Source: Gloeobacterales cyanobacterium
GTDB taxonomy: Bacteria; Cyanobacteriota; Cyanobacteriia; Gloeobacterales; PMM-0068
Direction: 5' to 3'
Assembly (NCBI GenBank): GCA_038245785.1
Contig: JBBRSB010000010.1
Coordinates: 1 to 64,000 of the forward strand
Length of the DNA stretch: 64,000 nucleotides
In this document: piece after piece, positions 8,026 to 22,767 of the stretch
How the letters are laid out: every line of letters begins with the position of its first letter
Position numbering within the stretch: the stretch's first letter is position 1
Translations under genes and position numbers: made by a program
Notes under the pieces: model-generated
What the model saw: the letters and a program-made list of their open reading frames with translations, nothing else
What the model was told of the DNA's origin: nothing
Databases searched by the model: none

Positions 8026-9237
8026 ATGAGCAAAGTCAGTAGACCCATTTACTTGGATAACAACGCAACCACAGCTGTGGACCCAAGCGTTTTGGAAGCA
8101 ATGTTGCCCTATTTTACAGAAATGTATGGCAATGCAGCATCCCGCAACCATGCCTATGGGTGGGAAGCAGAACAGGCCGTTGAAACCGCTCGCGAACAGA
8201 TTGCGCAAGGAATAGGGGCTACAGCCAAAGAAATCATCTTCACTTCGGGAGCAACGGAATCCAATAATCTAGCGCTAAAAGGCGTCGCCGAGGTCTATGC
8301 CGCTCAGGGAAAACATCTGATCACCAGTGTTACTGAACACAAGTGCATTTTGGATACCTGTCGATATTTAGAACAGAAGGGCTACGAAGTAACCTATCTT
8401 CCGGTCAACAGAGACGGCCTGGTAAAGTTAGAAGCCCTAGAAGCTGCCATCCGTCCTGATACCATTCTGGTCTCGATTATGACAGCCAATAACGAGATTG
8501 GAGTGCTTCAACCAATCACTGAAATCGGCAAAATCTGTACGGAGTACGGGGTAATCTTTCATACCGATGCTGCCCAAGCCTATGGCAAGGTCCCTCTACA
8601 CGTAGACAAGATGAATATCCATCTTTTGTCTCTGTCTGGGCATAAATTCCACGGCCCTAAAGGGATTGGCGCACTTTATGTGCGTCGTAAGAATCCAAGA
8701 GTGCAACTGGCTCCTCAAATGCATGGAGGAGGGCACGAACGCGGTCTGCGCTCAGGGACCTTGGCTGTACCTTCTATCGTTGGCATGGGAAGAGCAGCAG
8801 AAATCTGTCTCGCAGGCATGGCACAGGAGAATACACGAACTGAGGCCCTGCGAAATTACCTCTGGCAAGAAGTGCAGAAAAGCATACCGGAAGTTTCTCT
8901 TAATGGCAGTCTAGAATATCGTCTGGCGAATAACCTCAACCTGAGCTTTGCCTTTGTCGAAGGGGAATCCTTACTTATGGGTGTACACGATACCGTGGCT
9001 CTATCCTCTGGCTCTGCTTGCACTTCGGCCTCGTTAGAAGCATCTCATGTGCTCAAAGCGCTGGGCCTGAGTGACGAACAGGCTCGCTCCTCGATCCGGT
9101 TTGGAATAAGTAGATTTACAACGAGGGACGAAATCCACCGAGTAGTGGATAAACTGGGAATAGTCGTTAGCCGTCTACGGGCTATGTCTCCTCTGTGGAA
9201 GATACATCAGGAAAAAGCTCAGCAGACAGTCTATTAA
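8026..9237 (+). CDS. iscS: Cysteine desulfurase, IscS subfamily
   Basis: YLDNNATT, SGHKFHGPKG (PLP Lys) and SSGSACTS (catalytic Cys). Confidence 0.96.
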   Translation: MSKVSRPIYLDNNATTAVDPSVLEAMLPYFTEMYGNAASRNHAYGWEAEQAVETAREQIAQGIGATAKEIIFTSGATESNNLALKGVAEVYAAQGKHLITSVTEHKCILDTCRYLEQKGYEVTYLPVNRDGLVKLEALEAAIRPDTILVSIMTANNEIGVLQPITEIGKICTEYGVIFHTDAAQAYGKVPLHVDKMNIHLLSLSGHKFHGPKGIGALYVRRKNPRVQLAPQMHGGGHERGLRSGTLAVPSIVGMGRAAEICLAGMAQENTRTEALRNYLWQEVQKSIPEVSLNGSLEYRLANNLNLSFAFVEGESLLMGVHDTVALSSGSACTSASLEASHVLKALGLSDEQARSSIRFGISRFTTRDEIHRVVDKLGIVVSRLRAMSPLWKIHQEKAQQTVY

Positions 9238-9315
9238 CACCATGTCTAAAGTGTTTTAAGCCCAGACAGTAGAAACATATGAACGGACAACATCGTTTAG
9301 GAGTTGAGAGAAAAT

Positions 9316-9687
9316 ATGGCTGAAACAGCAGAAGCGACAAAAACTGGGGAAGCCAAGGGAATCCAACTGACGGATTCAGGGTTGAGAGAAGTGCTTCGTT
9401 TACGTGAACGCAAAGGCTCAGACCTATGGCTACGGGTAGGAGTCAAAGGAGGCGGGTGCTCAGGACTCTCGTACACTATGGATTTTGATAGCCCTGATAG
9501 TGTTACTGAACATGACGAAGTGTATGCTTACGCTTCAGGCTTTAGTGTCATTGTCGATAAGAAGAGTCTTTTGTATCTATACGGTCTGGTCCTCGACTAC
9601 AGCGATGACTTGTTGGGCGGAGGATTCAAGTTCGTAAACCCTAATGCCGAACGTTCTTGTAGCTGTGGCTCGTCGTTTTCCACATAA
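9316..9687 (+). CDS. iscA: Iron-sulfur cluster assembly accessory protein (IscA/HesB)
   Basis: GGCSGLSY and C-terminal CSCGSSF; directly follows iscS. Confidence 0.93.
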   Translation: MAETAEATKTGEAKGIQLTDSGLREVLRLRERKGSDLWLRVGVKGGGCSGLSYTMDFDSPDSVTEHDEVYAYASGFSVIVDKKSLLYLYGLVLDYSDDLLGGGFKFVNPNAERSCSCGSSFST

Positions 9688-9706
9688 ACAACTATTAGCG
9701 CCTTCT

Positions 9707-9736
9707 AGCCATCCTTTATATAAAGGATGGCTTTTT
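9707..9736 (+). terminator. Intrinsic terminator between convergent iscA and PPIase genes
   Basis: AGCCATCCTTTA-TA-TAAAGGATGGCT palindrome followed by a T-run. Confidence 0.8.
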
Positions 9737-9745
9737 CATGGGCCT

Positions 9746-10477
9746 TTAAGAGGGGAATCTACGATCTAATTCTTGAGACAGCCACTCTTGAAACATTCTA
9801 TGGACGATTTCCTGTCGTCTTTGATCTGTTAATTCTGCAGGAATCAATTCTTCAACCAAGAGCAGGTGATATCCTTTTTCCGTTCTGAGTGGACCAATAA
9901 TCTCATGTACAGGTGCAGTAAACGAAGCTTCAGCAATATCAGAGTCTAAGTCTGAGCGATAAAATATTCCTTCATAACCGCACTGGTGTCTACGTCGCTC
10001 ATCAATATCGTAGAGATGGGCCGCTTCATAGAAACTAAGTTCTTGCTCTTTAATTTGATGAATAACGTCATCTACAACTCTTTCATAAGGGACAATAGTC
10101 TGATAAAGTACGACCTGATCAAATTCAGCCTGGTGTTCATAAAAAAATCTTTCTGCAGCATCGAAGAATAGAGAAGTAGCCAATTTTTGTCGAATTAAAC
10201 GATCATAAACTCCTGCTTCTAGATCATCTATATTAACTAGCTGCTGCTTGATCCAAAGCAAAATATCTGAGGCTTGTTCTAGATCTGTTGCTATAAACAT
10301 TTGATTGATATTAGCTTGCACTTCCTCGGGAGCAACGATAAGATTTCTCTCCTGAGCAACTTGATCAATTATTTTTTGACACAATATTTGATAATAAGTT
10401 TCTTTTAGTCGAAGAGTTTTTTGCAGAAATCTCAAAATCTCATCTGGTGTAACACGTAACTTTGAGAGGCTAGACAT
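9746..10477 (-). CDS. PpiC/SurA-like peptidylprolyl isomerase/foldase of peptide export cluster (copy 2)
   Basis: SFYEAAHLYDIDERRRHQCGYEG...IIGPLRTEKGYHLLLVE parvulin-like region; paralogue of 14319..15113. Confidence 0.85.
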   Translation of the reverse strand: MSSLSKLRVTPDEILRFLQKTLRLKETYYQILCQKIIDQVAQERNLIVAPEEVQANINQMFIATDLEQASDILLWIKQQLVNIDDLEAGVYDRLIRQKLATSLFFDAAERFFYEHQAEFDQVVLYQTIVPYERVVDDVIHQIKEQELSFYEAAHLYDIDERRRHQCGYEGIFYRSDLDSDIAEASFTAPVHEIIGPLRTEKGYHLLLVEELIPAELTDQRRQEIVHRMFQEWLSQELDRRFPS

Positions 10478-10568
10478 TTTTTAATTCTATTTTGGTAGAT
10501 TTTCACAAGCTTTACCTGCATTGCAAACCTATATAGATATGGATTTCAAATATCAGTTGTGAACTAAT

Positions 10569-10609
10569 AAATTTCAGTCTAAGACTGACTACGCCTTAGA
10601 CTGAAATTT
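10569..10609 (-). terminator. Hairpin downstream of peptide gene 10632..10913
   Basis: 15-bp arms AAATTTCAGTCTAAG / CTTAGACTGAAATTT. Confidence 0.7.
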
Positions 10610-10631
10610 TTACAGTTAAGCACTAAGAGAT

Positions 10632-10913
10632 CTAACTGGTAGATGTCGAGGTAGATACCTTTCCATCTTCAACAGAAGCACTAGCGTTAGAAGATGATGA
10701 CTTCACTATCGAGTTACTACTACCGGGATCATTACTACCGAAGGAAAAAGAGAAACTTGCAGGGCCACTAGACACAAAAGAAGGAATACCAGGCAAGAAA
10801 CCGAAACCACCAATGAAAGGGATAGGAGGTACAGAAGCACCACCTCTCACTCTATAAACACAAGGGGAATAAATTTCAAAAAAGTTTAAATCAACAATGG
10901 ATAAAGATTTCAT
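10632..10913 (-). CDS. Double-glycine leader peptide, Pro/Phe/Gly- then Ser-rich core
   Basis: Leader MKSLSIVDLNFFE...RVRGG; GAGGA RBS; lies inside the PCAT cluster. Confidence 0.8.
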   Translation of the reverse strand: MKSLSIVDLNFFEIYSPCVYRVRGGASVPPIPFIGGFGFLPGIPSFVSSGPASFSFSFGSNDPGSSNSIVKSSSSNASASVEDGKVSTSTSTS

Positions 10914-11200
10914 TGGACTTTCCTCGCAGAATGGTTTGGGTATTCAGCACATTGACTACTTCTAGCATCATTGCAAATCAGATAATGAAAAATAATTATA
11001 TTGCAGACAATGATAAAAGCTATAGATTAAGTTTACACCAAACCTATTTCCTTGATTTAAAGAAACAGTATTAGCATATTAGAAGTGGCCATATTACATT
11101 CAGCAAAAAGGTATTTATCAAAACCCCTTAAATTCTCTATGAGCTTAAAGAATTCATAAAGAAAATACAACTTAGAGCTGAAAAGTTCTGAGACAACCTA

Positions 11201-11240
11201 CTTCATAAGCTATCTAGATTAATTTAGACAGCTTATGAAG
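11201..11240 (-). terminator. Hairpin downstream of peptide gene 11255..11479
   Basis: CTTCATAAGCT...AGCTTATGAAG arms. Confidence 0.7.
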
Positions 11241-11254
11241 CTTGACCAACGATA

Positions 11255-11479
11255 CTAACTAAAATTAATACCATCTTGACCATTAAAAGAAATGTTATCT
11301 GCAATTGATATTGCAGTAGCATTACCTCTGAAGGCCTGAGCGGTAGAATAGGCTGTAGCATACTGCCTAACATCGATAACGTTGTACTGAACGTTGCTTT
11401 GTGAGAAATAGCCTAAGCCACCTGCAAGATTTGTTGATGGAGAAACTTCTCCCAGATAGCTCAAATCGGAAATAATCAT
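11255..11479 (-). CDS. Double-glycine leader peptide, N/Q/Y-rich core (tandem paralogue 4, most divergent)
   Basis: MIISDLSYLGEVSPSTNLAGG leader plus a 53-aa core that aligns without gaps to the three neighbours; AGGAG RBS. Confidence 0.92.
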   Translation of the reverse strand: MIISDLSYLGEVSPSTNLAGGLGYFSQSNVQYNVIDVRQYATAYSTAQAFRGNATAISIADNISFNGQDGINFS

Positions 11480-11559
11480 AGTTTTGCTCCTGCAAGCTCA
11501 TGTTTAATAGAAAAGGTCGAGCTGTTACAAACAATATAAATGCATATACAAAATCATGT

Positions 11560-11572
11560 TGCCACTTTGGCA
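11560..11572 (-). promoter_or_regulatory. TGCCA-N3-TGGCA palindrome 21 nt upstream of TATATT -10-like box
   Basis: + strand TGCCACTTTGGCA; the same site recurs upstream of each cassette. Confidence 0.75.
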
Positions 11573-11609
11573 TAAATCCTAATTAAAAATAGAAAATGCA
11601 TACCTTCAG

Positions 11610-11657
11610 AGAAAATACTGGTGACTACTAAATATAGATATGTCACCAGTATTTTCT
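11610..11657 (-). terminator. Hairpin downstream of peptide gene 11722..11946
   Basis: 16-bp arms AGAAAATACTGGTGAC / GTCACCAGTATTTTCT; a second weaker hairpin lies at about 11667-11701. Confidence 0.7.
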
Positions 11658-11721
11658 TTATTTCAATAGAGTACCTCTAATACGTAGGTCGAAGTACTCT
11701 ATATTTCAAGTTGAGCTTTCA

Positions 11722-11946
11722 TTAACTAATGTTGTAGTTGGACTGGTAAATGCTCGAAGAGTTGGGGACATAGGTAGAGGCGTATGCACTACCTCTAAAA
11801 GCTTCCGCATTGGAATAACCATTGGCGTACTGACTAACGTAGGCACTGTTGTACTGCGAGGTATTTTGATCAAAGAAACCAGCGCCACCTACAAGGTTAG
11901 TTGCTTCGGAAACTTCTTCCAAATAGACCAGATCAGAAATTTTCAT
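11722..11946 (-). CDS. Double-glycine leader peptide, N/Q/Y-rich core (tandem paralogue 3)
   Basis: MKISDLVYLEEVSEATNLVGG plus 53-aa core; AAGGAGAGA RBS. Confidence 0.95.
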   Translation of the reverse strand: MKISDLVYLEEVSEATNLVGGAGFFDQNTSQYNSAYVSQYANGYSNAEAFRGSAYASTYVPNSSSIYQSNYNIS

Positions 11947-12032
11947 TGGTTCTCTCCTTTAAATTAGTTTTCTGTTTAAGAACAACATTATGTTGCTCAT
12001 AATTAATATAGCTATCTTCTGTGTTCTCATGT

Positions 12033-12045
12033 TGCCACTTTGGCA
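12033..12045 (-). promoter_or_regulatory. TGCCA-N3-TGGCA palindrome 22 nt upstream of TATATT
   Basis: + strand TGCCACTTTGGCA. Confidence 0.75.
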
Positions 12046-12092
12046 GTGTTTCTCAATTCCAATACTCTTGATCAGAATATTATTTATCCAAA

Positions 12093-12141
12093 AAATAGCT
12101 GGAAGTTTCTTGTTTAACTAAGAATTAAACTCCAGCTATTT
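12093..12141 (-). terminator. Hairpin downstream of peptide gene 12155..12379
   Basis: AAATAGCTGGA...TCCAGCTATTT arms with an A-run on the left (U-tail on the minus strand). Confidence 0.65.
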
Positions 12142-12154
12142 GCCAACTTTCATG

Positions 12155-12379
12155 TTAGCTATAGTTCACATTATTCTGGTAAATTCCAGAGTAGTTGGAT
12201 ACACCGGTGGAGGCATATGCATTACCTCTAAAGGCTTCAGCATCAGAATAGCCATTGGCGTACTGATTGACATAAGCATTGTTCCACTGCGAGGTATTTT
12301 GATCAAAGTAGCCAGAGCCGCCTACAAGGGCAGTTGCTTCAGAAACTTCTTCCAAATAGACCAAATCAGAAATTTTCAT
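12155..12379 (-). CDS. Double-glycine leader peptide, N/Q/Y-rich core (tandem paralogue 2)
   Basis: MKISDLVYLEEVSEATALVGG plus 53-aa core; AAGGAGAGAG RBS. Confidence 0.95.
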   Translation of the reverse strand: MKISDLVYLEEVSEATALVGGSGYFDQNTSQWNNAYVNQYANGYSDAEAFRGNAYASTGVSNYSGIYQNNVNYS

Positions 12380-12465
12380 TGTCTCTCTCCTTAAAGTTAG
12401 TTTTCGCTTAATAACAACATTAAGTTGCTGTATAAATACTATAGATATTTTCTTGATTTTAGTGT

Positions 12466-12478
12466 TGCCAATTTGGCA
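12466..12478 (-). promoter_or_regulatory. TGCCA-N3-TGGCA palindrome 22 nt upstream of TATAGT
   Basis: + strand TGCCAATTTGGCA. Confidence 0.75.
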
Positions 12479-12522
12479 GGTATTCTATTAGGAAATAGAC
12501 ATATTTTTCAAAGAGTAAATAC

Positions 12523-12556
12523 AATGCAAGCTTTTTGATTATAAAAAGCTTGCATT
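12523..12556 (-). terminator. Hairpin downstream of peptide gene 12575..12799
   Basis: 14-bp arms AATGCAAGCTTTTT / AAAAAGCTTGCATT. Confidence 0.7.
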
Positions 12557-12574
12557 AGTCTTCATTCTCCAAAG

Positions 12575-12799
12575 TTAGCTAACGTTGAAGTTGGACTGGC
12601 CAATGCCTGAGTAGTTGGATACATTGGTATATGCAGATGCATTACCTCGAAAGGCTTCAGCATCAGAATAGCCAGTGGCGTACTGACTGACGTAAGCATT
12701 GTTGTACTGCGCGGTATACTGATTAAAGAAGCCAGAGCCGCCTACAAGGGCAGTTGCTTCGGAAACTTCTTCCAAATAGACCAAATCAGAAATTTTCAT
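12575..12799 (-). CDS. Double-glycine leader peptide, N/Q/Y-rich core (tandem paralogue 1)
   Basis: MKISDLVYLEEVSEATALVGG plus 53-aa core; AAGGAGAGAG RBS. Confidence 0.95.
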   Translation of the reverse strand: MKISDLVYLEEVSEATALVGGSGFFNQYTAQYNNAYVSQYATGYSDAEAFRGNASAYTNVSNYSGIGQSNFNVS

Positions 12800-12885
12800 T
12801 GTCTCTCTCCTTCAAATTAGTTTTGTAATTAAAACAACTTTATTAGGTTGCTACTATTACTATAGACAATAGAGCTTGAGAAGAT

Positions 12886-12898
12886 TGCCACTTTGGCA
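12886..12898 (-). promoter_or_regulatory. TGCCA-N3-TGGCA palindrome 21 nt upstream of TATAGT
   Basis: + strand TGCCACTTTGGCA. Confidence 0.75.
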
Positions 12899-12938
12899 GA
12901 TAGTTTCAGTCATCATGAAACACCAAGAATATGTCTTC

Positions 12939-12986
12939 AAAGACTAATGGAAGCTTCTTAATCATAAAAAGCTTCCATTAGTCTTT
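12939..12986 (-). terminator. Hairpin downstream of the peptide pseudogene
   Basis: 18-bp arms AAAGACTAATGGAAGCTT / AAGCTTCCATTAGTCTTT; homologous to the 12523-12556 hairpin. Confidence 0.7.
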
Positions 12987-12997
12987 AGCCTCCAAGA

Positions 12998-13087
12998 TCA
13001 GCTGAAGTTAATATTGGACTGACCAACTTAAGAAAGATTAGATGAAACTGTGGATGCAAATGCACTTCCTCCTTTAGCCTCTGAGGA
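12998..13087 (-). pseudogene. Degenerate fifth copy of the tandem peptide (C-terminal half, internal stop)
   Basis: Minus strand reads SSEAKGGSAFASTVSSNLS*VGQSNINFS*, aligning with DAEAFRGNASAYTNVSNYSGIGQSNFNVS. In-frame TAA at 13028-13030; leader not recognisable. Confidence 0.8.
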
Positions 13088-13225
13088 AAGTAAGGGTGGA
13101 CCGCTTGCTTTTGGCGGTATAAGAGTATGTCTTGCTCACATATGCCTGTGTCTAAACTAATAGCTCTTGATTCATTACCTGAGCAGAGCAGACTAGAAAT
13201 ATAGATAGCCTTGATCTGAATAGTT

Positions 13226-13238
13226 TACCAATTTAGTA
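13226..13238 (-). promoter_or_regulatory. Decayed copy of the palindromic site upstream of the pseudogene
   Basis: + strand TACCAATTTAGTA (3 mismatches), still 22 nt from TATATT on the minus strand. Confidence 0.45.
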
Positions 13239-13300
13239 TGCATTTACTCTGAGAATCTTTAATCTGGCTCAAACCTTCCAGCAATCTAATTCATTAGAGA

Positions 13301-13349
13301 CAATAAGAGCTGTGAGGCGTTTCATTGAATCGCTTCATAGCCCTTATTG
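13301..13349 (-). terminator. Imperfect hairpin downstream of 13378..13668
   Basis: CAATAAGAGCTGTGAGGCG...CGCTTCATAGCCCTTATTG. Confidence 0.55.
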
Positions 13350-13377
13350 CTAATCTAAGATAGCAGATAAGAAGATT

Positions 13378-13668
13378 CTAACCTCTAGCACTGGATTTAG
13401 CATTGGCGAAACCACCAATTGAAGTCGCTGCAGAAGCTGCCCCAGCGGCACCACCAATGCTGAGTAAATCAACTTTGAATCCACTTAGTTGATCTCCTGT
13501 CACGTTGTAGTCTGTAGCATATCTAGTATCATAGGCAGTATCGTATGCTAGTGAGTAACTAGGGGTGCTACTTGCACTAGCTGAAATACCACTTCCTCCG
13601 CTTATACAAATTTCTCCAGCACATACCGCCTCAAGAAAGTTAAGATCAGTGATTGCGAACTGACTCAT
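13378..13668 (-). CDS. Double-glycine leader peptide, 96 aa, Ser/Ala/Tyr-rich
   Basis: Start at ATG 13668 after AGGAG RBS: MSQFAITDLNFLEAVCAGEICISGG|SGISASASS...AYDTAYDTRYATDY... Confidence 0.85.
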   Translation of the reverse strand: MSQFAITDLNFLEAVCAGEICISGGSGISASASSTPSYSLAYDTAYDTRYATDYNVTGDQLSGFKVDLLSIGGAAGAASAATSIGGFANAKSSARG

Positions 13669-13704
13669 GGCACTTCTCCTTTTTTTATACAATGAGGCTA
13701 GTTC

Positions 13705-13935
13705 TTAGCCTACAGCGACAGAAGAAGATGCAGCGACGGAACTAGAGAAAAGACCTGCTACGCCAGCTGTCTTCGTAAACGTTTTGGTCTCAGTAAGATA
13801 GCCAAGAGCATCTGCTTGCGCTAAGGAACTAGCTGAAGCTATAGGCGGAAAGCCATAAGTTGGCACACCGCTTCCTTCTACACAACTTGCATCTTCAGAG
13901 ATGGCTCCTAGATAGTTTAGATCAGAAATAATCAT
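13705..13935 (-). CDS. Leader peptide of the same family (GS/SG variant cleavage site), Ser/Ala/Thr-rich core
   Basis: MIISDLNYLGAISEDASCVEGSG...; GGGAGA RBS. Confidence 0.85.
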   Translation of the reverse strand: MIISDLNYLGAISEDASCVEGSGVPTYGFPPIASASSLAQADALGYLTETKTFTKTAGVAGLFSSSVAASSSVAVG

Positions 13936-14016
13936 TAGATTTCTCCCTTATAATTCACTGGAAACAGCCTTTTTGGTTGTCTACAAACAGATTAATTGAG
14001 AAAGATAAAAACATGT

Positions 14017-14029
14017 TGCCAAATTGGCA
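14017..14029 (-). promoter_or_regulatory. TGCCA-N3-TGGCA palindrome 22 nt upstream of TAATCT
   Basis: + strand TGCCAAATTGGCA, upstream of the 13935 gene. Confidence 0.7.
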
Positions 14030-14055
14030 TCTTTTAAAATTACGTATATTTAAAC

Positions 14056-14090
14056 AAAAAAATGCTTAGTTCACCAGAGTAAACCAAGCA
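14056..14090 (-). terminator. Intrinsic terminator on the minus strand
   Basis: Minus strand TGCTTGGTTTAC-TCTG-GTGAACTAAGCA-TTTTTTT (12-bp stem with two G-U pairs and a U7 tail). Confidence 0.75.
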
Positions 14091-14263
14091 AGGCCGACAT
14101 TATCAGGGGTTCGAAAACTTTTTCTAGTTCTTAAAGAATTATCTAAAAGGGATAGCTAAAATTCTATTGCTATCTATATTTTCAACTTCTTTAGAGGAAA
14201 ACATAAGAAGCTAAAGTTAGTAGTTTTAATAGGCAAGCATCCTTTTAGATAATGGACTGTATC
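14056..14263 (-). ncRNA. Candidate structured small RNA (~205 nt)
   Basis: Bounded by the palindrome/TATAGT promoter (14270-14309) and the U-tailed terminator. Contains a long imperfect hairpin closed by ATTATCTAAAAGG (14138-14150) / CCTTTTAGATAAT (14241-14253). Only very short ORFs. Confidence 0.45.
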
Positions 14264-14296
14264 GATAACACTATAGATAATCTAATTAATAGCAGG

Positions 14297-14309
14297 TGCC
14301 ATTTTGGCA
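14297..14309 (-). promoter_or_regulatory. TGCCA-N3-TGGCA palindrome 21 nt upstream of TATAGT
   Basis: + strand TGCCATTTTGGCA; -10 box at 14270-14275. Confidence 0.7.
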
Positions 14310-14318
14310 TTAATCTAT

Positions 14319-15113
14319 TCACAAATTACTTTGAGAAGAAGAATGATTAGACTTTGAGTCAAAACTAGACAGCCAATGCAATTTTTCTTGCTCCAGCCAT
14401 TGCCTAAATAAATCCTCAGTTATTTTCTGATGAAGCGGTTGGATTAACTCTGCAGAAAGAATTTGTTCAATCATGAGTAGATGCCATCCCTGATCGTTGG
14501 ACACTGGCCCTGCTATCTCTCCTACCGTCACGCCAAAAGCGGCGGTGGCTAAATCTGGTTTCATTTCCCAGCGACTGACCTCACCTTCATAGCCACAGCG
14601 ACGGCCTCGCTGCATGTTGACATCAAACTGATGGGCCGCTTCGAAGAAACTAATTTCTTGGTCTTGTATACGATAGAGCACCTCGTAGGCCAATGCCTCT
14701 GAAGCGAGCGTAATTTGATACAGTACAGCCCGATCATACCCCAGTCGATTTTCTGCAAAGACTTGATCCGCCTTCTGAGAATAGAGCTGATCAGCCAACT
14801 TGCATCTCAGCACCTGTTTTTGCAAACCTGCTTCAAAGTCTTCCTCATCAACCTGCTGTTCATTGAGCCAGGTTAAAGTATCTGAAGCTTTTTCCAGGTG
14901 ATGCTGTCTACGGAATTGGTCTGCTTCCATTTGAATTTCTTCTGGCGTAACTTCGATACCTCGACTCTGTGCATTCCAGGCAATTATCTCTTGGTACAAC
15001 AAAGTATCTCTTACCTTTTTAAACTGGAATGTCTGCCGTAGATAACTACTAACAGCTTTGAATTCTTCTTGTTGGTTTGAGGCTGTCAATTTAGGGAAAG
15101 CAACATTTAGCAT
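14319..15113 (-). CDS. PpiC/SurA-like peptidylprolyl isomerase/foldase of peptide export cluster (copy 1)
   Basis: GIEVTPEEIQMEAD SurA-N-like helix; SFFEAAHQFDVNMQRGRRCGYEG...GPVSNDQGWHLLMIE. Confidence 0.85.
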   Translation of the reverse strand: MLNVAFPKLTASNQQEEFKAVSSYLRQTFQFKKVRDTLLYQEIIAWNAQSRGIEVTPEEIQMEADQFRRQHHLEKASDTLTWLNEQQVDEEDFEAGLQKQVLRCKLADQLYSQKADQVFAENRLGYDRAVLYQITLASEALAYEVLYRIQDQEISFFEAAHQFDVNMQRGRRCGYEGEVSRWEMKPDLATAAFGVTVGEIAGPVSNDQGWHLLMIEQILSAELIQPLHQKITEDLFRQWLEQEKLHWLSSFDSKSNHSSSQSNL

Positions 15114-15139
15114 GTGTATTCATCCACAAATAGGGGTAA

Positions 15140-15325
15140 TTAGCTAGTGCTGAAGCAAGAGCACGTAGATGATGAGAAGCTTTCCCTATGTCTAGAGGAA
15201 GCCTTTGCCAAAACAGACTGTTTTGTCTGATTTCGTTCAGAGTCAATAACAATACTAGTTGAATCTGCAGTTGCACGTTCATTACAAGAAACAGCATGCG
15301 TTCTTAGAATCTTCTGGCGAATCAT
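15140..15325 (-). CDS. Small Ser-rich protein without GG motif
   Basis: AGAGG RBS 6 nt before ATG; lies in operon orientation between hetP and the PPIase. Confidence 0.55.
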   Translation of the reverse strand: MIRQKILRTHAVSCNERATADSTSIVIDSERNQTKQSVLAKASSRHRESFSSSTCSCFSTS

Positions 15326-15433
15326 AACTAACCTCTTTTAGAGCCTCATCTTATAACCAAGAGTCAATGCACTCAGCATAGACAGGCTAATCAATCAATT
15401 GTCGCTATCTCGACAAAATTTTACTTAAAGCCC

Positions 15434-15796
15434 TTAGCTGGATAGCATAAATTCCATACTTATACCAGTAGGGTACAATGGCATCATGCCGCCCCGCACT
15501 CTTGACTGAAATGCAGTTTCTAGATGAGGCAAATCATCAATAACAGCAACTCTTTGAGCGTTCTGTTTGCGAAGCTGAGAAACTCCACAGTTCAAAACAT
15601 ACTGAGCCGATTTGTCTGATTGCAGGACAGACTGCTTTCTAACTTGTATATTCTCTTTCAGAAGCCTATTGTAGGTGCGGTAGGGAATGTAGTGCAGGGG
15701 ATTAAGCCCATTAGAACGCAACAGCAGCACACAAGCCCAGGAATATTTACCATCTACAATCGCGTCAATGATCTGATCTAATTTTTCAGGAAGCAC
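15434..15796 (-). CDS. hetP: HetP family protein
   Basis: [43 protein letters not shown] is the HetP signature; C-terminal IDDLPHLE...VRGG. Confidence 0.92.
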
Positions 15797-15838
15797 GTTT
15801 TTACCCTCTTATGTTTTCAAAAGATACATCTGGCATTT

Positions 15839-17245
15839 CTAAAGGCTAAAACCACCTTTCTGTAACTGCTCAATGGGATCGAGAAGAAAACTAATAATTC
15901 GGCGCTGACGAATAACGACTTCAGCACTCGCTGTCTGACCACTCTTGAGTTGAACAGGACGACCATTGCTGATAATATAAGAACGATCAAGTTTAATTTT
16001 CAGCTTATAGATTTCTCCTAATTGGGAGTCTGTTTGAGCATCAGGCGATATGCTTTGCACTCGACCTGATAACATGCCAAACTCTTGATAGGGATAAGCA
16101 TCTAGTTTGATATTTACAGGCATACCCGTTCGTGCAAAACCTGCCTCACGATTGGGCAGACGGGCTTCTAGAACAAGAGGGGCTTTTTGTGGAGCAAGCT
16201 CAGCAATAGTTTGCCCAGGCTGGATAACCTCTCCCACATTTTTAACCTGCAAAGAAGAGACTGTACCGCTAATTGGGGCATAGACAAATCGCCTGCGGAG
16301 GCGCTGTTCAGCCATCTGTAAACGGCTTTGTATTTCGCTTAGTTCAGCATGCGCTTGAGTGACCTGCATTCTGAGTTCTTGAACTTTCTGCTGCGCTTGG
16401 AGGATAGCCGTATTTCCTTCCGCTCGTTGTTTTAGCAAGAGTTCTCGATTCTGAGCGATAGTCTGATTAGCATTATCTAAATCTCCTGAATGCTGGATCA
16501 ATTGAGCTTCACGATCATGGAATGCTTGCTCGGCAGAAAAGACCTGCTCACGGGAAATAGCTCCAGAATTCACTAAAGGAATAAGACGATTTAACCGTTC
16601 TTGATGTCGTTTGATGTCTGCTTGACTCTGCCGGGCCATCCGGCCCAGATTGGCGCTACGGGCCTGCGCTTGGGTAATTAAGCTTTGCTGAGCAGCTTGA
16701 GCCGCATTCGCTTGTTGTTGGCGACTGCTTAGCTCTGCCTGCGCCTGTGCCAGTAAACCTTCAGTCTGGAGAAGGCGCATCTGAGAAGTGTTTAGGAGTT
16801 GTCTCTGAAGATCTATTTCTGTATGTAAGCTTTCTGGCTCCAGATCAACTAGCACTTGTCCTTTCTGAACCGACATGCCTTCTCGAATACGCAGACGGGC
16901 AATTTTTCCTGTCTCAGGAAGCTGAAGTTTGTACAGGCTGCCTTGGGGGACAAGCTTGCCTTGGGCCTTGCCTACTTCATCAATTTGGCCAAACCAACTC
17001 CAAGTACCAACACCCCCAAGAAGCAAGAGTACACCAGCTAAAGCATATAAGGGCAGTCTAGAAGGGGGAGACTGTAAAACTTCCTGCACCGCTGGCGACC
17101 ACTGAGTGATCTCTTGCGTCTGAAAATGCACTAAGGCTACAGACTCCGCCGAGGTGTGTTGGAGTTGAGAACGGTCTGGTGAAGGTGTGGAAGAAGGAGT
17201 AATCATAGCTATCCCCATTAAAAAGAGTATGGAAACAGAATTCAA
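15839..17245 (-). CDS. HlyD family type I secretion membrane fusion protein
   Basis: Single TM segment, long Gln/Ala coiled coil, APISGTV, KLDAYPYQEFG and LKSGQTASAEV. True start may be ATG 17218 or 17206. Confidence 0.95.
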   Translation of the reverse strand: MNSVSILFLMGIAMITPSSTPSPDRSQLQHTSAESVALVHFQTQEITQWSPAVQEVLQSPPSRLPLYALAGVLLLLGGVGTWSWFGQIDEVGKAQGKLVPQGSLYKLQLPETGKIARLRIREGMSVQKGQVLVDLEPESLHTEIDLQRQLLNTSQMRLLQTEGLLAQAQAELSSRQQQANAAQAAQQSLITQAQARSANLGRMARQSQADIKRHQERLNRLIPLVNSGAISREQVFSAEQAFHDREAQLIQHSGDLDNANQTIAQNRELLLKQRAEGNTAILQAQQKVQELRMQVTQAHAELSEIQSRLQMAEQRLRRRFVYAPISGTVSSLQVKNVGEVIQPGQTIAELAPQKAPLVLEARLPNREAGFARTGMPVNIKLDAYPYQEFGMLSGRVQSISPDAQTDSQLGEIYKLKIKLDRSYIISNGRPVQLKSGQTASAEVVIRQRRIISFLLDPIEQLQKGGFSL

Positions 17246-17292
17246 GAGAGAATCTTTCGATCGGATGGGCTATTTTTTAGGTTCGCCTCTCC

Positions 17293-20200
17293 TTACAGCA
17301 CCAGTTGTTGCTGTGCTAAGTACGCGTAAAGCCCTTTGCGTTTAATCAGCTCAGCATGAGTTCCTTGTTCTGCAAGTACACCTCGGTCCAGCACAAGAAT
17401 TTGATCGGCATCGCGCACGGTAGATAGGCGGTGCGCAATGACCAGCATGGTGCGTCCTTGCCGGACTTCTTGAAGATTTTGCTGGAACCGTCGTTCTGAC
17501 TCTGTATCTAAAGAACTGGTCGCCTCATCCAAAATTAAAAATTGTGGATTGTGCAGGAGGGCGCGCGCAATAGCAATGCGCTGTCGTTGCCCCCCAGAGA
17601 GGTTAGCCCCCCGCTCTCCCACTTTCGTTTCATAACCTAAAGGGAATTCCTGAATAAAGGCATGGGCTTCCGCTAATTGGGCAACCTCGATCACTTGCTC
17701 CAGATTGTACTGAGGCTGAAATAAGGTGATATTTTCGCGAATAGTACCGGAGAAGAGGAAGCATTCCTGAGGAACCACACCAATCTGACGGCGTAAAGAT
17801 ACAGGAGAGACTTGAGCAAGATCATAGTCATCAAGCAGAATACGTCCCTTGTCTGGTTTGTATAATCCCTGAATCAACTTAGCCAGGGTACTCTTGCCAG
17901 AACCCGAACGCCCTACAATCGCAACCACCTGCCCTGGTTGGATTTCAAAACTTAAATTCTGCAGCGTATTCGTCTCAGCATCTTTGTTGTAGCGAAAGGT
18001 GACATTCTCAAAGCAGAGATGGCCGTGGAGGAAGGGTAACTGAATGCCTTGTTCTGGACTGGGAGTTTCCGGAGTCGCCTCAAAAACATCATTCAAACGC
18101 TCTACGGATACCACTACTTCTTGGAACTCATCCCATAATCCTACAAATCTCAAGACAGGCCCAATTACGTTTCCGACCAGCATATTGAAGGCCACAAACT
18201 GTCCAATAGTAAGTTGTTCTTGAATAACGAGGTTAGCTCCATACCAGAGCAGGGCCGTACTCCCTAAGGTGTTGAATAAACTACCCACAGAACTTAAGCC
18301 ATTTGCCAGTTTTTGTCCCTTGAAAACAGAGTTGAGCGTAGCCGTGAAACGGTCCTCCCATAACCAGCGCAGATCCCGTTCGGCCGCCGCAGATTTTACG
18401 GTGGCGATACCCGAAAAGGTTTCTACTAGAGTCGAGGTGGCAGCAGCTTCCCGATTAAAAATTTCTCGTGAGATACGACGCAAAAAGGGAGTAGAACCCA
18501 CAGTCAGCAAGACAAAGGGCGGAATCAAAGCTAACACGAGCAGCGTAAGTTGCGCATTGTAGTAAAACATCAACCCCAGGTAGACGAATACCATAAGGGT
18601 ATCCAGCCAGACAGAAAGGGCCTGACGGGTGAGAAATGCTTGAATCTTTCGATTTTCCTGGACACGGGTGATCAGGTCTCCCACATGCCGCATTTCAAAG
18701 AAGCCCAAGGGCAGTGTCAAGGCATGGTTGATAAAACCACTGATCATCGTCAAATCAAGTCGATTGGAGAAATAGTCCAATAGGTACTGACGGAAAGCAG
18801 ACAATCCGACCTGCCACACTCCGAACAGGATAAGGCCAATAGAGAAGACATTCAGGGCTACCTGACTTTTTTGGACAACCACTTTGTCTAGAATAATCTG
18901 CGTAAATAAAGGAGTGACGAGACCCAGAATCTGCAGTAGAAAAGTCATCAGCAAAATCTGGGCCATGGTGTTTCGATAGGGCCATAACAACCCAAGAAAA
19001 CGCCACAGGGAACTTTTACTTTCCGGGGTTTCTTTAAAGCGTGGCGTGGGTTCCAAAAGCAGAGCATAACTGGTCCAATTTTTTTGGAATTCAGCTGGTT
19101 TGAGGCGGCGGATGCCCATAGCCGGATCAGCCACGACTACTTTTTGCGGAGTGACTTTATAAACCACTACGTAATGGTCTCCCTGCCAATGGGCAATCCA
19201 GGGATGGGGTTGCGTTACCATCCGGTCAAAACTGGCCCGCACAGGACGGCTCTGAAAGCCCAGCGTTTCTGCCGCCGCCGCCAGAGACCGTAAAGAAGCA
19301 CCATTCCGTCCTACCCCAATTTGCTCTCGCAATTGGTTGATATCTAAACGTTTACCCCAGAAAAGACCAATCATGCGCAAGCAGGCTGCACCACAATCAG
19401 CCGCACTTTGCTGTTCTGCAAACGGATAGCGCCACCGAAATTTAGGGAGGAGGTTAGGACCGGGAAAAGCAACAGCCACCTTTTGCTTTTTTGGAGGGGG
19501 CGCTTTCTGACCAGGCCCAGAGACTACTTCCATGGGGGTAGGCACTATAGGCTTGACGGCAGTAGCAGAAAGAACAGATTCCCAGAGCGCTGAGGGCAGG
19601 TGATATACCTGCACATCCTTCACTGCTAGCCAATCACTTTGATTTGGCTCCCAGCGGCTTCCCACGGACACGGATTCTCCAACAGCATCCGTACTAGGCT
19701 GCACAGCCCCTTCCTTGAGCCAGTAAATTCCTGGTTTCAGACTGCTAAAGCGAGTCTTGGAAGGAATATTCTCTAAAGTGGCCTCTTCAGCCAGTTTTCT
19801 AAACTGTGGACCAGACAGGGTATGTAATCCTGCTTTCAAGCGTAAGAATAGAAGCTTTTGCTGATAAGCCAATTGTTCCGTAATGAGTTTTTGGAGCTTG
19901 GGATACCGTGACTGCCAGTGCGCAAGCCTATCTTTGGGTAAGCACCAAACACGAACAGGTCCGGCCGCAACCATCTGATGCGCAAACTCCGCTTCTGCAG
20001 AAACAAAAAATAAATCGGCAGATGTGAGTAAAGCCACATTAACCTTTGTCCCGTTTGCCTGAGTAGCAATGAGTCGGGCCCGACCACTGACAATTACAAA
20101 CAGCTCAGAATCTTGTTTGTCTGCAGTTAAACCGACTTCAGCAATAACCTCACCAAGGCCATATTCTTTGAGCTGTGGATATTGGGATAGTTCCTGTAAA

Positions 20201-20310
20201 GCCTGAGGAGGGAGTTGCTCTGCCCAGTGACTAGACTGGAGTAGTTCTAAAGGCCAGTTTTGGGATAATTCGATATGCTCAGAAGGCCAAGCGGGCACAC
20301 TTTTCTGCAT
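17293..20310 (-). CDS. Peptidase-containing ABC transporter (degenerate cNMP-binding region + C39 peptidase + TMD + NBD), HetC/PteB-like
   Basis: QQSAADCGAACL (catalytic Cys), HWQGDHYVV and ADPA; Walker A GRSGSGKS, LSGGQRQR, ILDEATSSLD and IAHRLST. Confidence 0.96.
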   Translation of the reverse strand: MQKSVPAWPSEHIELSQNWPLELLQSSHWAEQLPPQALQELSQYPQLKEYGLGEVIAEVGLTADKQDSELFVIVSGRARLIATQANGTKVNVALLTSADLFFVSAEAEFAHQMVAAGPVRVWCLPKDRLAHWQSRYPKLQKLITEQLAYQQKLLFLRLKAGLHTLSGPQFRKLAEEATLENIPSKTRFSSLKPGIYWLKEGAVQPSTDAVGESVSVGSRWEPNQSDWLAVKDVQVYHLPSALWESVLSATAVKPIVPTPMEVVSGPGQKAPPPKKQKVAVAFPGPNLLPKFRWRYPFAEQQSAADCGAACLRMIGLFWGKRLDINQLREQIGVGRNGASLRSLAAAAETLGFQSRPVRASFDRMVTQPHPWIAHWQGDHYVVVYKVTPQKVVVADPAMGIRRLKPAEFQKNWTSYALLLEPTPRFKETPESKSSLWRFLGLLWPYRNTMAQILLMTFLLQILGLVTPLFTQIILDKVVVQKSQVALNVFSIGLILFGVWQVGLSAFRQYLLDYFSNRLDLTMISGFINHALTLPLGFFEMRHVGDLITRVQENRKIQAFLTRQALSVWLDTLMVFVYLGLMFYYNAQLTLLVLALIPPFVLLTVGSTPFLRRISREIFNREAAATSTLVETFSGIATVKSAAAERDLRWLWEDRFTATLNSVFKGQKLANGLSSVGSLFNTLGSTALLWYGANLVIQEQLTIGQFVAFNMLVGNVIGPVLRFVGLWDEFQEVVVSVERLNDVFEATPETPSPEQGIQLPFLHGHLCFENVTFRYNKDAETNTLQNLSFEIQPGQVVAIVGRSGSGKSTLAKLIQGLYKPDKGRILLDDYDLAQVSPVSLRRQIGVVPQECFLFSGTIRENITLFQPQYNLEQVIEVAQLAEAHAFIQEFPLGYETKVGERGANLSGGQRQRIAIARALLHNPQFLILDEATSSLDTESERRFQQNLQEVRQGRTMLVIAHRLSTVRDADQILVLDRGVLAEQGTHAELIKRKGLYAYLAQQQLVL

Positions 20311-20383
20311 ACAATTCTCCTCAAAGATTACGTAACGGAAAAGCAGATAGATTGTTGCTCTTTTTTAAGTTAGGGACTAAAAG

Positions 20384-20399
20384 TGTATCTGAAAATACA
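20384..20399. promoter_or_regulatory. NtcA-box-like site
   Basis: TGTA-TCTGAAAA-TACA (GTA-N8-TAC), about 75 bp upstream of the PCAT start; no TAnnnT at the canonical 22-nt spacing. Confidence 0.4.
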
Positions 20400-20509
20400 A
20401 TGTTTTGTTTCTTGACGAGTGCATCCTACACCCTAAATTAAGTCGTTACAACAGCCCTTTCTTATATTTTCTTTATATTTGTTAATTAGCGACATTTATA
20501 AGTTCTATT

Positions 20510-20544
20510 AGTCCGGACATAATTAAATTAATTATGTCCGGACT
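20510..20544. repeat. Perfect inverted repeat, 17-bp arms
   Basis: AGTCCGGACATAATTAA-A-TTAATTATGTCCGGACT. Confidence 0.9.
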
Positions 20545-20740
20545 TGCTTAATCCAGCATTTGAAATGCCTTACTCAAAAGATGCATTTTAGAGGAGTTCT
20601 ATTCCTTACTGTATAGTCAATACACAAGATAACAAGCTATTAAAATAGTCATCTTTTTGCAGAATATAACAATATTTGGAGTGGTCGCTTTTGTGCAAAG
20701 GTCAACAAGTTTTGTCGTGAACTTTCTTCATTTTTTGTGC

Positions 20741-20779
20741 ATTGAAAGATCTTTAGGTCGTATTGAAAGATCTTTAGGT
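20741..20779. repeat. 18-bp direct repeat with 21-bp period
   Basis: ATTGAAAGATCTTTAGGT at 20741-20758 and 20762-20779; each copy contains the palindrome AAAGATCTTT. Confidence 0.9.
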
Positions 20780-20789
20780 ATCGAAAAAC

Positions 20790-20802
20790 TGCCAAAGTGG
20801 CA
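20790..20802 (+). promoter_or_regulatory. TGCCA-N3-TGGCA palindrome 21 nt upstream of TATGAT, facing rightwards
   Basis: TGCCAAAGTGGCAACA, the exact reverse complement of the 11557-11572 site. Confidence 0.7.
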
Positions 20803-20867
20803 ACACCTCTTTATGGTTTTATATATGATGAAGGGATAGGCTTTCTAGAAACTATATAAAGAGAGCG

Positions 20868-21017
20868 GTGAAATATCCTTTACCTTTAAAGCTTGACAAT
20901 GTAGAACTAGCCAACCTCGATCTTTTGGAAGAGCAAGACAAAAATATTGCCCCTGGGCTACTATTGCGAACTAAGTATGACTTCATCTGTCAAAAGGCTG
21001 GAAAATGTCTTTCTTGA
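20868..21017 (+). CDS. Unannotated 49-aa ORF downstream of the rightward promoter
   Basis: GTG start after GAGAG: MKYPLPLKLDNVELANLDLLEEQDKNIAPGLLLRTKYDFICQKAGKCLS. Confidence 0.35.
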   Translation: MKYPLPLKLDNVELANLDLLEEQDKNIAPGLLLRTKYDFICQKAGKCLS

Positions 21018-21067
21018 TAGATGCTAGATAAATTCAAGCGTAGGTTTAGAAAAATCGCTAGCTAGAG

Positions 21068-21310
21068 TTAGTTAGGCTTATGGGTTGCGAGTCCTAAATC
21101 CATAGGATGACTGATGCTATGTCCATCACAAATCACCAAATCTGGTTTTAACGGCAGTCTGACAAAGGTTTCTAGTAGAGGGGCACTTCCTGGAAAGATG
21201 CTAGTCCTGGAACATAAATTATCCGTTAGCACCTGAGCACGCAACAAGCTCCTTTGAAGCAAGCGGGCTTTTTGCGTAGTGACGTCCCATCGATGAAACG
21301 ATTTTGATGT
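21068..21310 (-). pseudogene. nfi: Endonuclease V remnant
   Basis: HRWDVTTQKARLLQ resembles the EndoV N-terminus and LKPDLVICDGHSISHPMDLGLATH resembles PDLIxCDGxGIAHPRRxGLAxH. Large internal and C-terminal losses. Confidence 0.7.
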
Positions 21311-21435
21311 GGATCAGCGGACGAAGTAATCCAATACAATAGAGTTTTAGCTTCTCGGCTAATTATCTCTACCTTCTATCCTGTACGGGTTTTAGGAATT
21401 GGGTCATACTAGATAGCACAGGATGGTGTGGTCTC

Positions 21436-22767
21436 ATGCTCAGGATTGTTACCCAGCGAGCAGAAGCAGAACAAGAGTTGAGGCGTCTTGCCTCTCGGAC
21501 CCATTCGGACCAAGTAATTCATAAAGAATCTACGGTCCGAGAGATCCTGCTGAATGTAAAACGTTCTGGGGACGAAGCTCTGATCCGTTATACGCTTGAA
21601 TTCGATCACGTAGATCTGCAGCAGGTCGGACTCACGATTTCTCCAGAAGAGAAGGCGCGGGCCTACGAGATGATCTCGGCCAAGCTCTTGAAAGCAATTC
21701 GGCTGGCGCACCAAAGGATTGAAGCATTTCATCGAGAACGCGTCCCCAAATCATGGGTAACTCATGGACCGCATGGGATCGTCCTTGGTAAAAAAATCAC
21801 CCCTGTCGATATAGCCGGGCTTTATATCCCTGGGGGGAGAGCTAGCTATCCGAGTACCGTATTAATGAATGCAATACCAGCAAAAGTGGCTGGGGTACCG
21901 CGCATTGCCATGGTGACACCTCCGAGTGCAAACTCTTCTAGCCTGGGGAATGAAAGTATCAACCCAGCGGTTTTAGTTGCAGCCCAAGAAGCAGGAATTC
22001 AAGAAATTTATCGGGTTGGAGGAGCTCAGGCGATTGGAGCCTTGGCCTATGGCACCCAGACCATTCCCAAAGTAGATGTGATCACAGGTCCTGGGAATAT
22101 CTATGTAACCCTAGCCAAGAAGCTGGTCTATGGAGAAGTAGGCATTGATTCTTTAGCCGGTCCCTCGGAAGTCTTGGTGATTGCCGACCATACTGCTAAT
22201 CCTTTATGGGTCGCGACAGATCTACTCGCCCAGGCAGAGCACGACCCTTTAGCTTCGGCTATCTTGCTGACTCCCAGTGAAACCGTCGCGCATCAAGTCG
22301 TAATCGAAGTGGAGAAGCTGCTCAAAACCCATGAGCGTAGAGTGCTTACGGAAAAGTCGATTGCTAACTATGGTCTAGTAGTTATTACCTCAGACTTAGA
22401 GGAAGCCACTGAACTCTCTAACCTTTTTGCTCCAGAACATTTAGAGCTAGAAGTAGAAGATCCGTGGGCTTTACTTCCTAAAATTCGGCATGCGGGAGCT
22501 GTGTTCCTGGGTCACCATACCCCCGAAGCGATCGGAGACTACCTGGCGGGGCCAAACCACACCTTGCCAACCTCTGGAGCCGCTCGACATAGTTCCGCTT
22601 TGGGCGTGGAGACTTTCATGAAGTCCACAAGCTTGATTCACTATAGTCCTGAAGCTCTCGCCGAAGTCGCTGAAGCGATTGACGAGTTGACGTGGGCAGA
22701 AGGTTTACCTTCTCACGGAGACTCCGTGCGCTTCCGTTTAGGAGATACAGAGAAAAATTCAGGATAG
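21436..22767 (+). CDS. hisD: Histidinol dehydrogenase
   Basis: GLYIPGGRASYPSTVLM, IDSLAGPSE, AQAEHD, APEHLE and GPNHTLPT. Confidence 0.98.
   Translation: MLRIVTQRAEAEQELRRLASRTHSDQVIHKESTVREILLNVKRSGDEALIRYTLEFDHVDLQQVGLTISPEEKARAYEMISAKLLKAIRLAHQRIEAFHRERVPKSWVTHGPHGIVLGKKITPVDIAGLYIPGGRASYPSTVLMNAIPAKVAGVPRIAMVTPPSANSSSLGNESINPAVLVAAQEAGIQEIYRVGGAQAIGALAYGTQTIPKVDVITGPGNIYVTLAKKLVYGEVGIDSLAGPSEVLVIADHTANPLWVATDLLAQAEHDPLASAILLTPSETVAHQVVIEVEKLLKTHERRVLTEKSIANYGLVVITSDLEEATELSNLFAPEHLELEVEDPWALLPKIRHAGAVFLGHHTPEAIGDYLAGPNHTLPTSGAARHSSALGVETFMKSTSLIHYSPEALAEVAEAIDELTWAEGLPSHGDSVRFRLGDTEKNSG

Follow-up and report, generated by a model that had tools for sequence, protein, structure and literature searches.

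A conserved palindromic promoter element in cyanobacterial peptide-export clusters and a HetP-family protein as its likely reader

We describe here a promoter element found in a 64,000-nucleotide (nt) stretch of DNA from a Gloeobacterales cyanobacterium (assembly GCA_038245785.1, contig JBBRSB010000010.1, positions 1 to 64,000), called the window below. The element consists of a palindrome, TGCCA-N3-TGGCA (the box), followed after 21-22 nt by a −10-like TAnnnT hexamer. Its surroundings are, to judge from gene content, a peptide-export cluster, with an ATP-binding cassette (ABC) exporter of the C39/cNMP kind, an HlyD adaptor, a HetP-family gene, two rotamases and at least six double-glycine precursor-like open reading frames (ORFs). 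The element is almost certainly real and conserved. We will argue that it is likely bound near −41 by a dimer of the HetP-family protein of the same cluster, and that this protein would in this way activate sigma-70 promoters. The strongest evidence for HetP as the putative reader is the co-variation of the box with the third helix of this protein, as seen in comparisons of sequences.

Results

The exact palindrome is present in seven copies in the window and nowhere else in it. Scanning the window gave these seven and three one-mismatch palindromes, while shuffled sequences, also with up to one mismatch, gave a mean of 2.4 and a maximum of 7. The source genome (5.0 Mb, 98% complete) contains 15 exact palindromes compared to about 10 expected, so the palindrome by itself is not enriched and alone proves nothing. 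What does is the clustering, as 7 of the 15 are packed in 9.3 kb (Poisson ca 3e-15), together with the spacing to the TAnnnT hexamer, which is found 21-22 nt downstream at all seven window boxes and at none of the eight other palindromes. With a matrix made from 110 sites of other genomes, the seven boxes score 27-36 bits and lead the genome, the next site reaching 18.6. The initial annotation had reported the seven palindromes and their hexamers from the letters of the window, and the scan agrees with it in all positions and distances.

Taking the predicted transcription start to be the 7th base after the hexamer, the seven promoters can be laid out as follows. Boxes 1 to 6 are on the minus strand. 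Box 1 (11560-11572, TATATT at 11533-11538, predicted start ca 11526) stands before the precursor at 11255-11479, box 2 (12033-12045, TATATT at 12005-12010, ca 11998) before that at 11722-11946, box 3 (12466-12478, TATAGT at 12438-12443, ca 12431) before that at 12155-12379, and box 4 (12886-12898, TATAGT at 12859-12864, ca 12852) before that at 12575-12799. Box 5 (14017-14029, TAATCT at 13989-13994, ca 13982) precedes two precursors, at 13705-13935 and 13378-13692, while the unit of box 6 (14297-14309, TATAGT at 14270-14275, ca 14263) has no ORF of at least 25 amino acids. Box 7 (20790-20802, TATGAT at 20824-20829, ca 20836) is on the plus strand and points away from the exporter gene; in genome G002 a box in the same position does likewise. 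At five boxes the precursor starts 80-86 nt beyond the box, and a pyrimidine-purine step is found at the predicted start in six of the seven sites. None of the seven promoters is among the 19 consensus promoters that were found, and they have neither a −35 consensus nor an extended −10, which suggests activation rather than repression.

The same element recurs in other cyanobacteria. A search of 251 genomes of the class for the palindrome with 21/22 spacing gives 198 matches, spread over 83 of them, compared with 91 matches in 70 genomes for a control spacing of 25/26. This excess is restricted to genomes with a HetP-family gene: in the 54 that have one there are 149 matches against 40 at the control spacing, and in the 197 others 49 against 51. 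The gene is present in 31 of the 34 genomes with at least three sites. At 40 HetP-anchored loci, 17 of them chosen with prior knowledge of a nearby site, we counted 55 palindromes with a 3-nt spacer and 0-5 for each other spacer. A further 120 loci, fetched by HetP alone, gave 148 against 0-3, and here TAnnnT lies at 21 or 22 nt in 125 of 140 distinct sites. Past the hexamer, bases 6 and 7 form a pyrimidine-purine step in 115 of 180 sites (other positions 5-37%), which fits sigma-70 starts. Named records with the element belong to Microcoleus, Oscillatoria, Leptolyngbya, Rivularia, Nodularia and Trichormus; the many single non-cyanobacterial matches in the same listing were treated as chance.

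When the 180 sites in HetP loci are sorted by the next gene, 69 stand before a precursor (strict pattern), 17 before HlyD, 6 before an HPF-type precursor, 4 before a rotamase and 2 before a PEP-CTERM-like gene, while 82 fell in no class. Elsewhere, boxes stand before sugar transferases and polysaccharide export genes. The box is also carried by four of four full-length homologues of the small RNA NsiR8 (two exact, two with one mismatch), which in Anabaena/Nostoc PCC 7120 is HetR-dependent and heterocyst-specific (PMC4734099). A separate observation concerns the clade of L216, L219, L319 and L385, where the boxes lack TAnnnT and CCATT/CTATT-like words are found in its place, perhaps pointing to another sigma factor.

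The relation between box and protein was examined at 175 single-HetP loci, divided into classes by the two residues with which helix 3 of HetP begins. The site patterns required a CA-N3-TG core, and more distant variants would be missed. At Tyr-Arg loci (93 loci) the box reads TG..CA in 172 of 184 sites, whereas at the 14 loci with other residues this is the case in 0 of 17. Gln-Arg loci have TG..CT (7) and AG..CC (1), Arg-Arg loci AG..CC (4), GG..CC (1) and AG..CT (1), His-Arg has GG..CA (1) and Tyr-Thr has TA..TA (2). Where the Tyr is replaced, the outer base pair of the box differs, and the change from Arg to Thr is accompanied by a symmetric change, to TACCA-N3-TGGTA. The two promoter-like sites of this form in genome G082 are both inside its Tyr-Thr cluster.

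In a tree of HlyD, from which loci lacking this gene were excluded (61 rows and 442 columns), the variants fall on about five separate branches, each next to canonical clusters. Seven genomes (G116, G376, G164, G167, G111, G199, G231) have two paralogues with their own kind of box each, and in two more two-paralogue genomes the second locus has no site. Of the solo Gln-Arg paralogues, which were the last to be fetched, all six have TGCCA-N3-TGGCT ahead of the gene itself; as these six are orthologues, they were counted as one event. The columns of HetP best associated with the box class are Tyr39, Asn43 and Tyr36, with Fisher values that are overstated because kin are not independent and that are not used as proof. 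Overall divergence of HetP does not separate the box classes, and proteins that are far diverged but retain Tyr-Arg also retain the canonical box.

The proposed reader in the window is a HetP-family protein of 120 amino acids (15434-15796, minus strand), which matches NF037966 with 98.4 bits against a cut-off of 45 and is encoded by a single copy in the genome. Its predicted N-terminal domain has three helices (3-14, 18-28 and 39-61; predicted local distance difference test score, pLDDT, about 90), the third of which begins at Tyr39-Arg40. In helix-turn-helix (HTH) proteins, positions 1, 2 and 5 of the recognition helix usually read bases. Near the C-terminus there is a leader-like double-glycine motif, and a tail of this kind was seen in 41 of the 63 HetP ORFs whose loci contain precursor boxes and in 37 of the remaining 79; the C-terminal KIxDLxYLE-x10-GG motif of HetP-like genes was published in 2011 (PMC3140520). 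Natural tandem two-domain HetP proteins exist, and in P0001, P0003, P0004 and P0125 the domain is a tandem duplicate in one chain or, by eye, fused to an EAL-like domain.

Other regulators were also looked for. Clustering of 1041 proteins from 67 loci and the window showed that only HetP itself recurs as a regulator, save an IS630-like HTH protein (3 loci). The latter was considered as the factor and set aside: at E 1e-20 it is found in 33 of 251 genomes, with this query it is missing from many box-rich genomes, and it is tied to another exporter type. An IS630-derived HTH-only gene (G000 C53 1-320; L233-L262) lies directly upstream of this second C39 exporter type in many cyanobacteria, and it is a candidate regulator of that type of cluster. 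Searches for HetR (PF03574) and HetZ (NF037963) detected both in three of three filamentous controls and neither in G002 or in the present genome, which is 98% complete; this suggests that the module works outside heterocyst control.

The genes around the boxes are on the minus strand unless otherwise stated. The exporter (17293-20310) has cNMP-binding, C39 peptidase and ABC membrane and ATPase domains in a HetC-like architecture, and its operon has no box in this window. It is followed by the HlyD-family adaptor (15839-17245, TIGR01843 above cut-off), the HetP-family gene and a PpiC-type rotamase of 264 amino acids (14319-15113); a second PpiC-type rotamase of 243 amino acids (9746-10477) has no upstream box. 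The precursors behind boxes 1 to 4 each have 74 amino acids and a double-glycine leader, the first with a leader-profile E of 1e-7, the second with a core rich in Asn, Ser, Tyr and Gly, and the third and fourth being tandem copies. Behind box 5, the precursor of 76 amino acids (13705-13935) shares their leader, and the precursor-like ORF at 13378-13692 (leader-profile E 0.017) is probably read from the same box. A Ser-rich ORF of 93 amino acids without a box (10632-10913) has a start that is leader-like by eye and was unscored by the leader profile, and a Ser/Ala-rich ORF at 15140-15325, between the hetP-like gene and the rotamase, is possibly a decayed precursor.

Box 6 is followed by a candidate small RNA of ca 200 nt (14063-14263, minus strand) that ends in a hairpin resembling an intrinsic terminator (14090-14063), and for which no relative was seen in the fetched loci or in the genome; an Rfam scan of 9000-22000 gave nothing reaching the gathering score. 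Box 7 is followed by an ORF of 49 amino acids (20868-21017, plus strand) that by eye resembles the HPF-type leaders behind boxes elsewhere, but its match to the HPF-leader profile, with E 8.5, is not significant. An 18-bp direct repeat of period 21 (20741-20779) abuts box 7 upstream. A perfect inverted repeat (20510-20544) with 17-bp arms, each containing TCCGGA, the DIF1 hexamer, lies ca 200 nt ahead of the exporter gene; it is a possible operator of the exporter operon, in a genome without detected HetZ. Beyond the 49-residue ORF, fragments at 21068-21262 and 21409-21732 (minus strand) look by eye like a gene of 250 amino acids, intact in G002 at the corresponding position (L026 12455-13207), which we take to be endonuclease V-like.

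Several further units were noted under boxes in other genomes. A second box promoter lies 117 nt upstream of the NsiR8 box in L180, L181 and L182 (at ca 1342), with a short unit that ends in the same type of terminator. In Nostocales-type genomes (L042, L043, L044, L047, L120), a conserved structured RNA family of ca 240 nt with a terminator is found under box promoters, and no Rfam match was obtained in the four members scanned. Two further conserved non-coding leaders or small RNAs occur under box promoters, one in L046, L048 and L049 and the other in L041, L212 and L238. In L104, L123 and L124 a box is located ca 370-400 nt upstream of secreted-type ORFs of 87-88 amino acids that end in AYGSGTR and are PatX-like by eye.

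Discussion

On the basis of these results, the following mechanism can be proposed. A HetP dimer would occupy the 5-3-5 box at −40/−41, thus covering the −35 region, the outer base pair being read by Tyr39 and its inner neighbour by Arg40. The bound protein would recruit the sigma-70 polymerase to promoters that have no −35 consensus, and would turn on the exported-peptide precursors and, in many loci, hlyD-hetP. Positive feedback would be expected wherever an hlyD-hetP pair, or a hetP-like gene standing alone, has the box in front of it. In the present genome the regulon would comprise the seven sites. It has been reported that HetP is a DNA-binding protein and is required for most of the sigma-HetZ peaks in chromatin immunoprecipitation (PMC13342950).

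It is important to note that a number of observations weigh against HetP in this role. The binding of HetP to DNA has been termed nonspecific (PMC13342950), and its homologues are portrayed as working via protein-protein contacts (PMC9045159), whereas a specific site is proposed here. A fold search gave weak and tied matches, the best being VIA (Z 4.5), with TFIIE-alpha (Z 4.2, root-mean-square deviation (rmsd) 2.5 over 53), Fur (Z 3.7, rmsd 2.8 over 52) and DesR (Z 3.5, rmsd 2.7 over 46) also found. Foldseek against the PDB gave no match at E 0.001, a sequence search of the PDB gave no solved relative, and the ESM Atlas gave HetP clusters only, at 0.84. The variants amount to about five events on the tree and two off it, kin not being independent, and the Tyr-Thr class rests on a single locus. 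Non-canonical boxes form the majority in 9 of 81 Tyr-Arg loci, including L219 and L319. Asn43 is not a strict determinant, as it changes without a change of the box in L329, L315, L339 and L376, and no box was found near Lys43 paralogues (9 loci) or Ile43 paralogues. In the His/Ser clade the boxes have no TAnnnT at 21/22, and for the four NsiR8 homologues the Rfam model begins 2 nt, and not 7 nt, past the hexamer. Finally, G002 has three listed sites, two of them one repeated sequence, and no HetP match; its cluster is interrupted by contig ends. An alignment search for HetP in G002, G001, G088, G248 and G018, which was made without a positive control, also gave nothing.

An alternative would be that the box is a true activator site read by a factor encoded elsewhere, for example a STAND protein that is like XssQ and carries an HTH at its N-terminus, HetP being a co-activator or a co-inherited passenger. 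We consider this unlikely. XssQ does activate matrix genes in Synechocystis (PMC8205485), HTH-STAND genes are head-to-head with the exporter in two loci (L207, L226), STAND-related genes are present in this genome (on C44, C27, C23, C8 and C13), and such a factor would agree with the published nonspecific binding of HetP (PMC13342950). However, the XssQ consensus AAGTTXXAC does not fit the box, STAND homologues are found in 159 of 251 genomes, many of them without the box, and one trans factor would not give two clusters of the same genome different boxes, each matching the local HetP helix. The initial annotation had seen no regulator gene in the locus and had placed the factor in trans. Since a HetP-family gene does lie in the locus, and the box co-varies with its third helix, this claim is unsupported and probably wrong.

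Less likely still is that HetP or another protein binds the box as a repressor, or that the box coincides in part with the −35 element of an alternative sigma factor, whose start would be closer to TAnnnT. The proximal half of the box does cover the −35 region, and both the NsiR8 homologues beginning 2 nt past the hexamer by the Rfam model and the clade with boxes lacking TAnnnT would be in line with this. On the other hand, a sigma factor does not read strictly two-fold symmetric sites such as these, in which even the TACCA/TGGTA change is symmetric, the +7 start signature agrees with sigma-70, and promoters without a −35 consensus or an extended −10 should need help rather than blocking. That tandem duplication left the sites behind, or that they arose by chance in an AT-rich region, is highly improbable, even though three or four precursor cassettes are duplicated, the region has 38% G+C and the palindrome alone is not enriched genome-wide. 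The spacers between box and hexamer share only 1-9 of 16 bases pairwise, so duplication is no explanation for the seven sites, in line with the initial annotation, and the fixed-spacing element is found again across many families, upstream of small RNAs and of genes that are unrelated.

Class II promoters of NtcA and CRP have a symmetric site ca 22 nt before TAnnnT, with its centre near −41. The box shares this placement, its centre being at −40/−41 relative to the predicted starts, which upholds the class II geometry put forward in the initial annotation. The half-sites are laid out as 5-3-5 rather than as in the NtcA consensus GTA-N8-TAC (PMC3610870), which the column frequencies of the 110 sites do not resemble, and the reader proposed here would be a small three-helix protein and not a member of the CRP family. 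The earlier statement that the box is neither an NtcA nor a HetR site is supported, HetR not being found in the genome. The box also differs in sequence from the sigma-HetZ/DIF1 promoter TCCGGA-N16-17-TGnA (PMC13342950), and HetZ was not found here. An overlap with DIF1 and DIF2 exists in the HetR-dependent, heterocyst-specific output, as NsiR8 homologues carry the box. The DIF2 motif is named without a sequence in PMC10287535. Neither the box nor a specific HetP site was found in the literature searched, works defining DIF2 or testing HetP on DNA being outside the search, and the box may already be named in heterocyst formers.

The XssQ regulon of Synechocystis (PMC8205485) is alike in the activation of matrix genes, but XssQ is a STAND ATPase with the site AAGTTXXAC. 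The locus belongs with the groups I/II of bacteriocin-like clusters of Wang, Fewer and Sivonen 2011 (PMC3140520), with which it shares the long-type C39 ABC exporter with a nucleotide-binding domain and also HlyD, the rotamase, the HetP-like gene with the KIxDLxYLE-x10-GG motif and the double-glycine precursors. A point of difference is that no M16 peptidase was seen in this locus. In that paper HetP is taken as a possible precursor, and the word promoter is absent. The ebfG/pteB cluster of Synechococcus elongatus (PMC12267927) likewise has a C39 ABC exporter of small double-glycine proteins, the likeness to EbfG being one of architecture only. In Anabaena/Nostoc PCC 7120, HetP (Alr2818), Asl1930, Alr2902 and Alr3234 are of the same family (NF037966) and are likewise found beside a HetC-like exporter.

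A bolder version of the proposal that HetP reads the box is possible, although on balance we find it rather doubtful. HetP proteins would constitute a new family of activators that bind specific sequences by way of a readable code of two residues. Via the double-glycine leader at their C-terminus they would be cleaved or exported by the very exporter that they help to turn on, so that the secretion flux feeds back on transcription of the matrix and peptide regulon. Heterocyst formers would have recruited the circuit, with NsiR8, polysaccharide genes and hetC-hetP, to serve commitment. The coupling of export to transcription through the leader-like tail is speculation.

Conclusion

HetP has been known since 1994 to be required for heterocyst formation. 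If the proposal is true, this long-puzzling family of heterocyst regulators gains a molecular job, that of a transcription activator. The defined box, the predicted contact code (Tyr39, Arg40) and the natural specificity variants make HetP function directly testable, and orthogonal pairs of box and activator are potential parts for cyanobacterial engineering. In filamentous cyanobacteria the box would define a regulon of double-glycine precursors, the export adaptor, PEP-CTERM-like and calcium-binding repeat proteins, sugar transferases and several small RNAs, including the NsiR8 homologues. It would thereby tie heterocyst commitment to an older programme of secretion and matrix formation, one that is present in a genome without detected HetR or HetZ.

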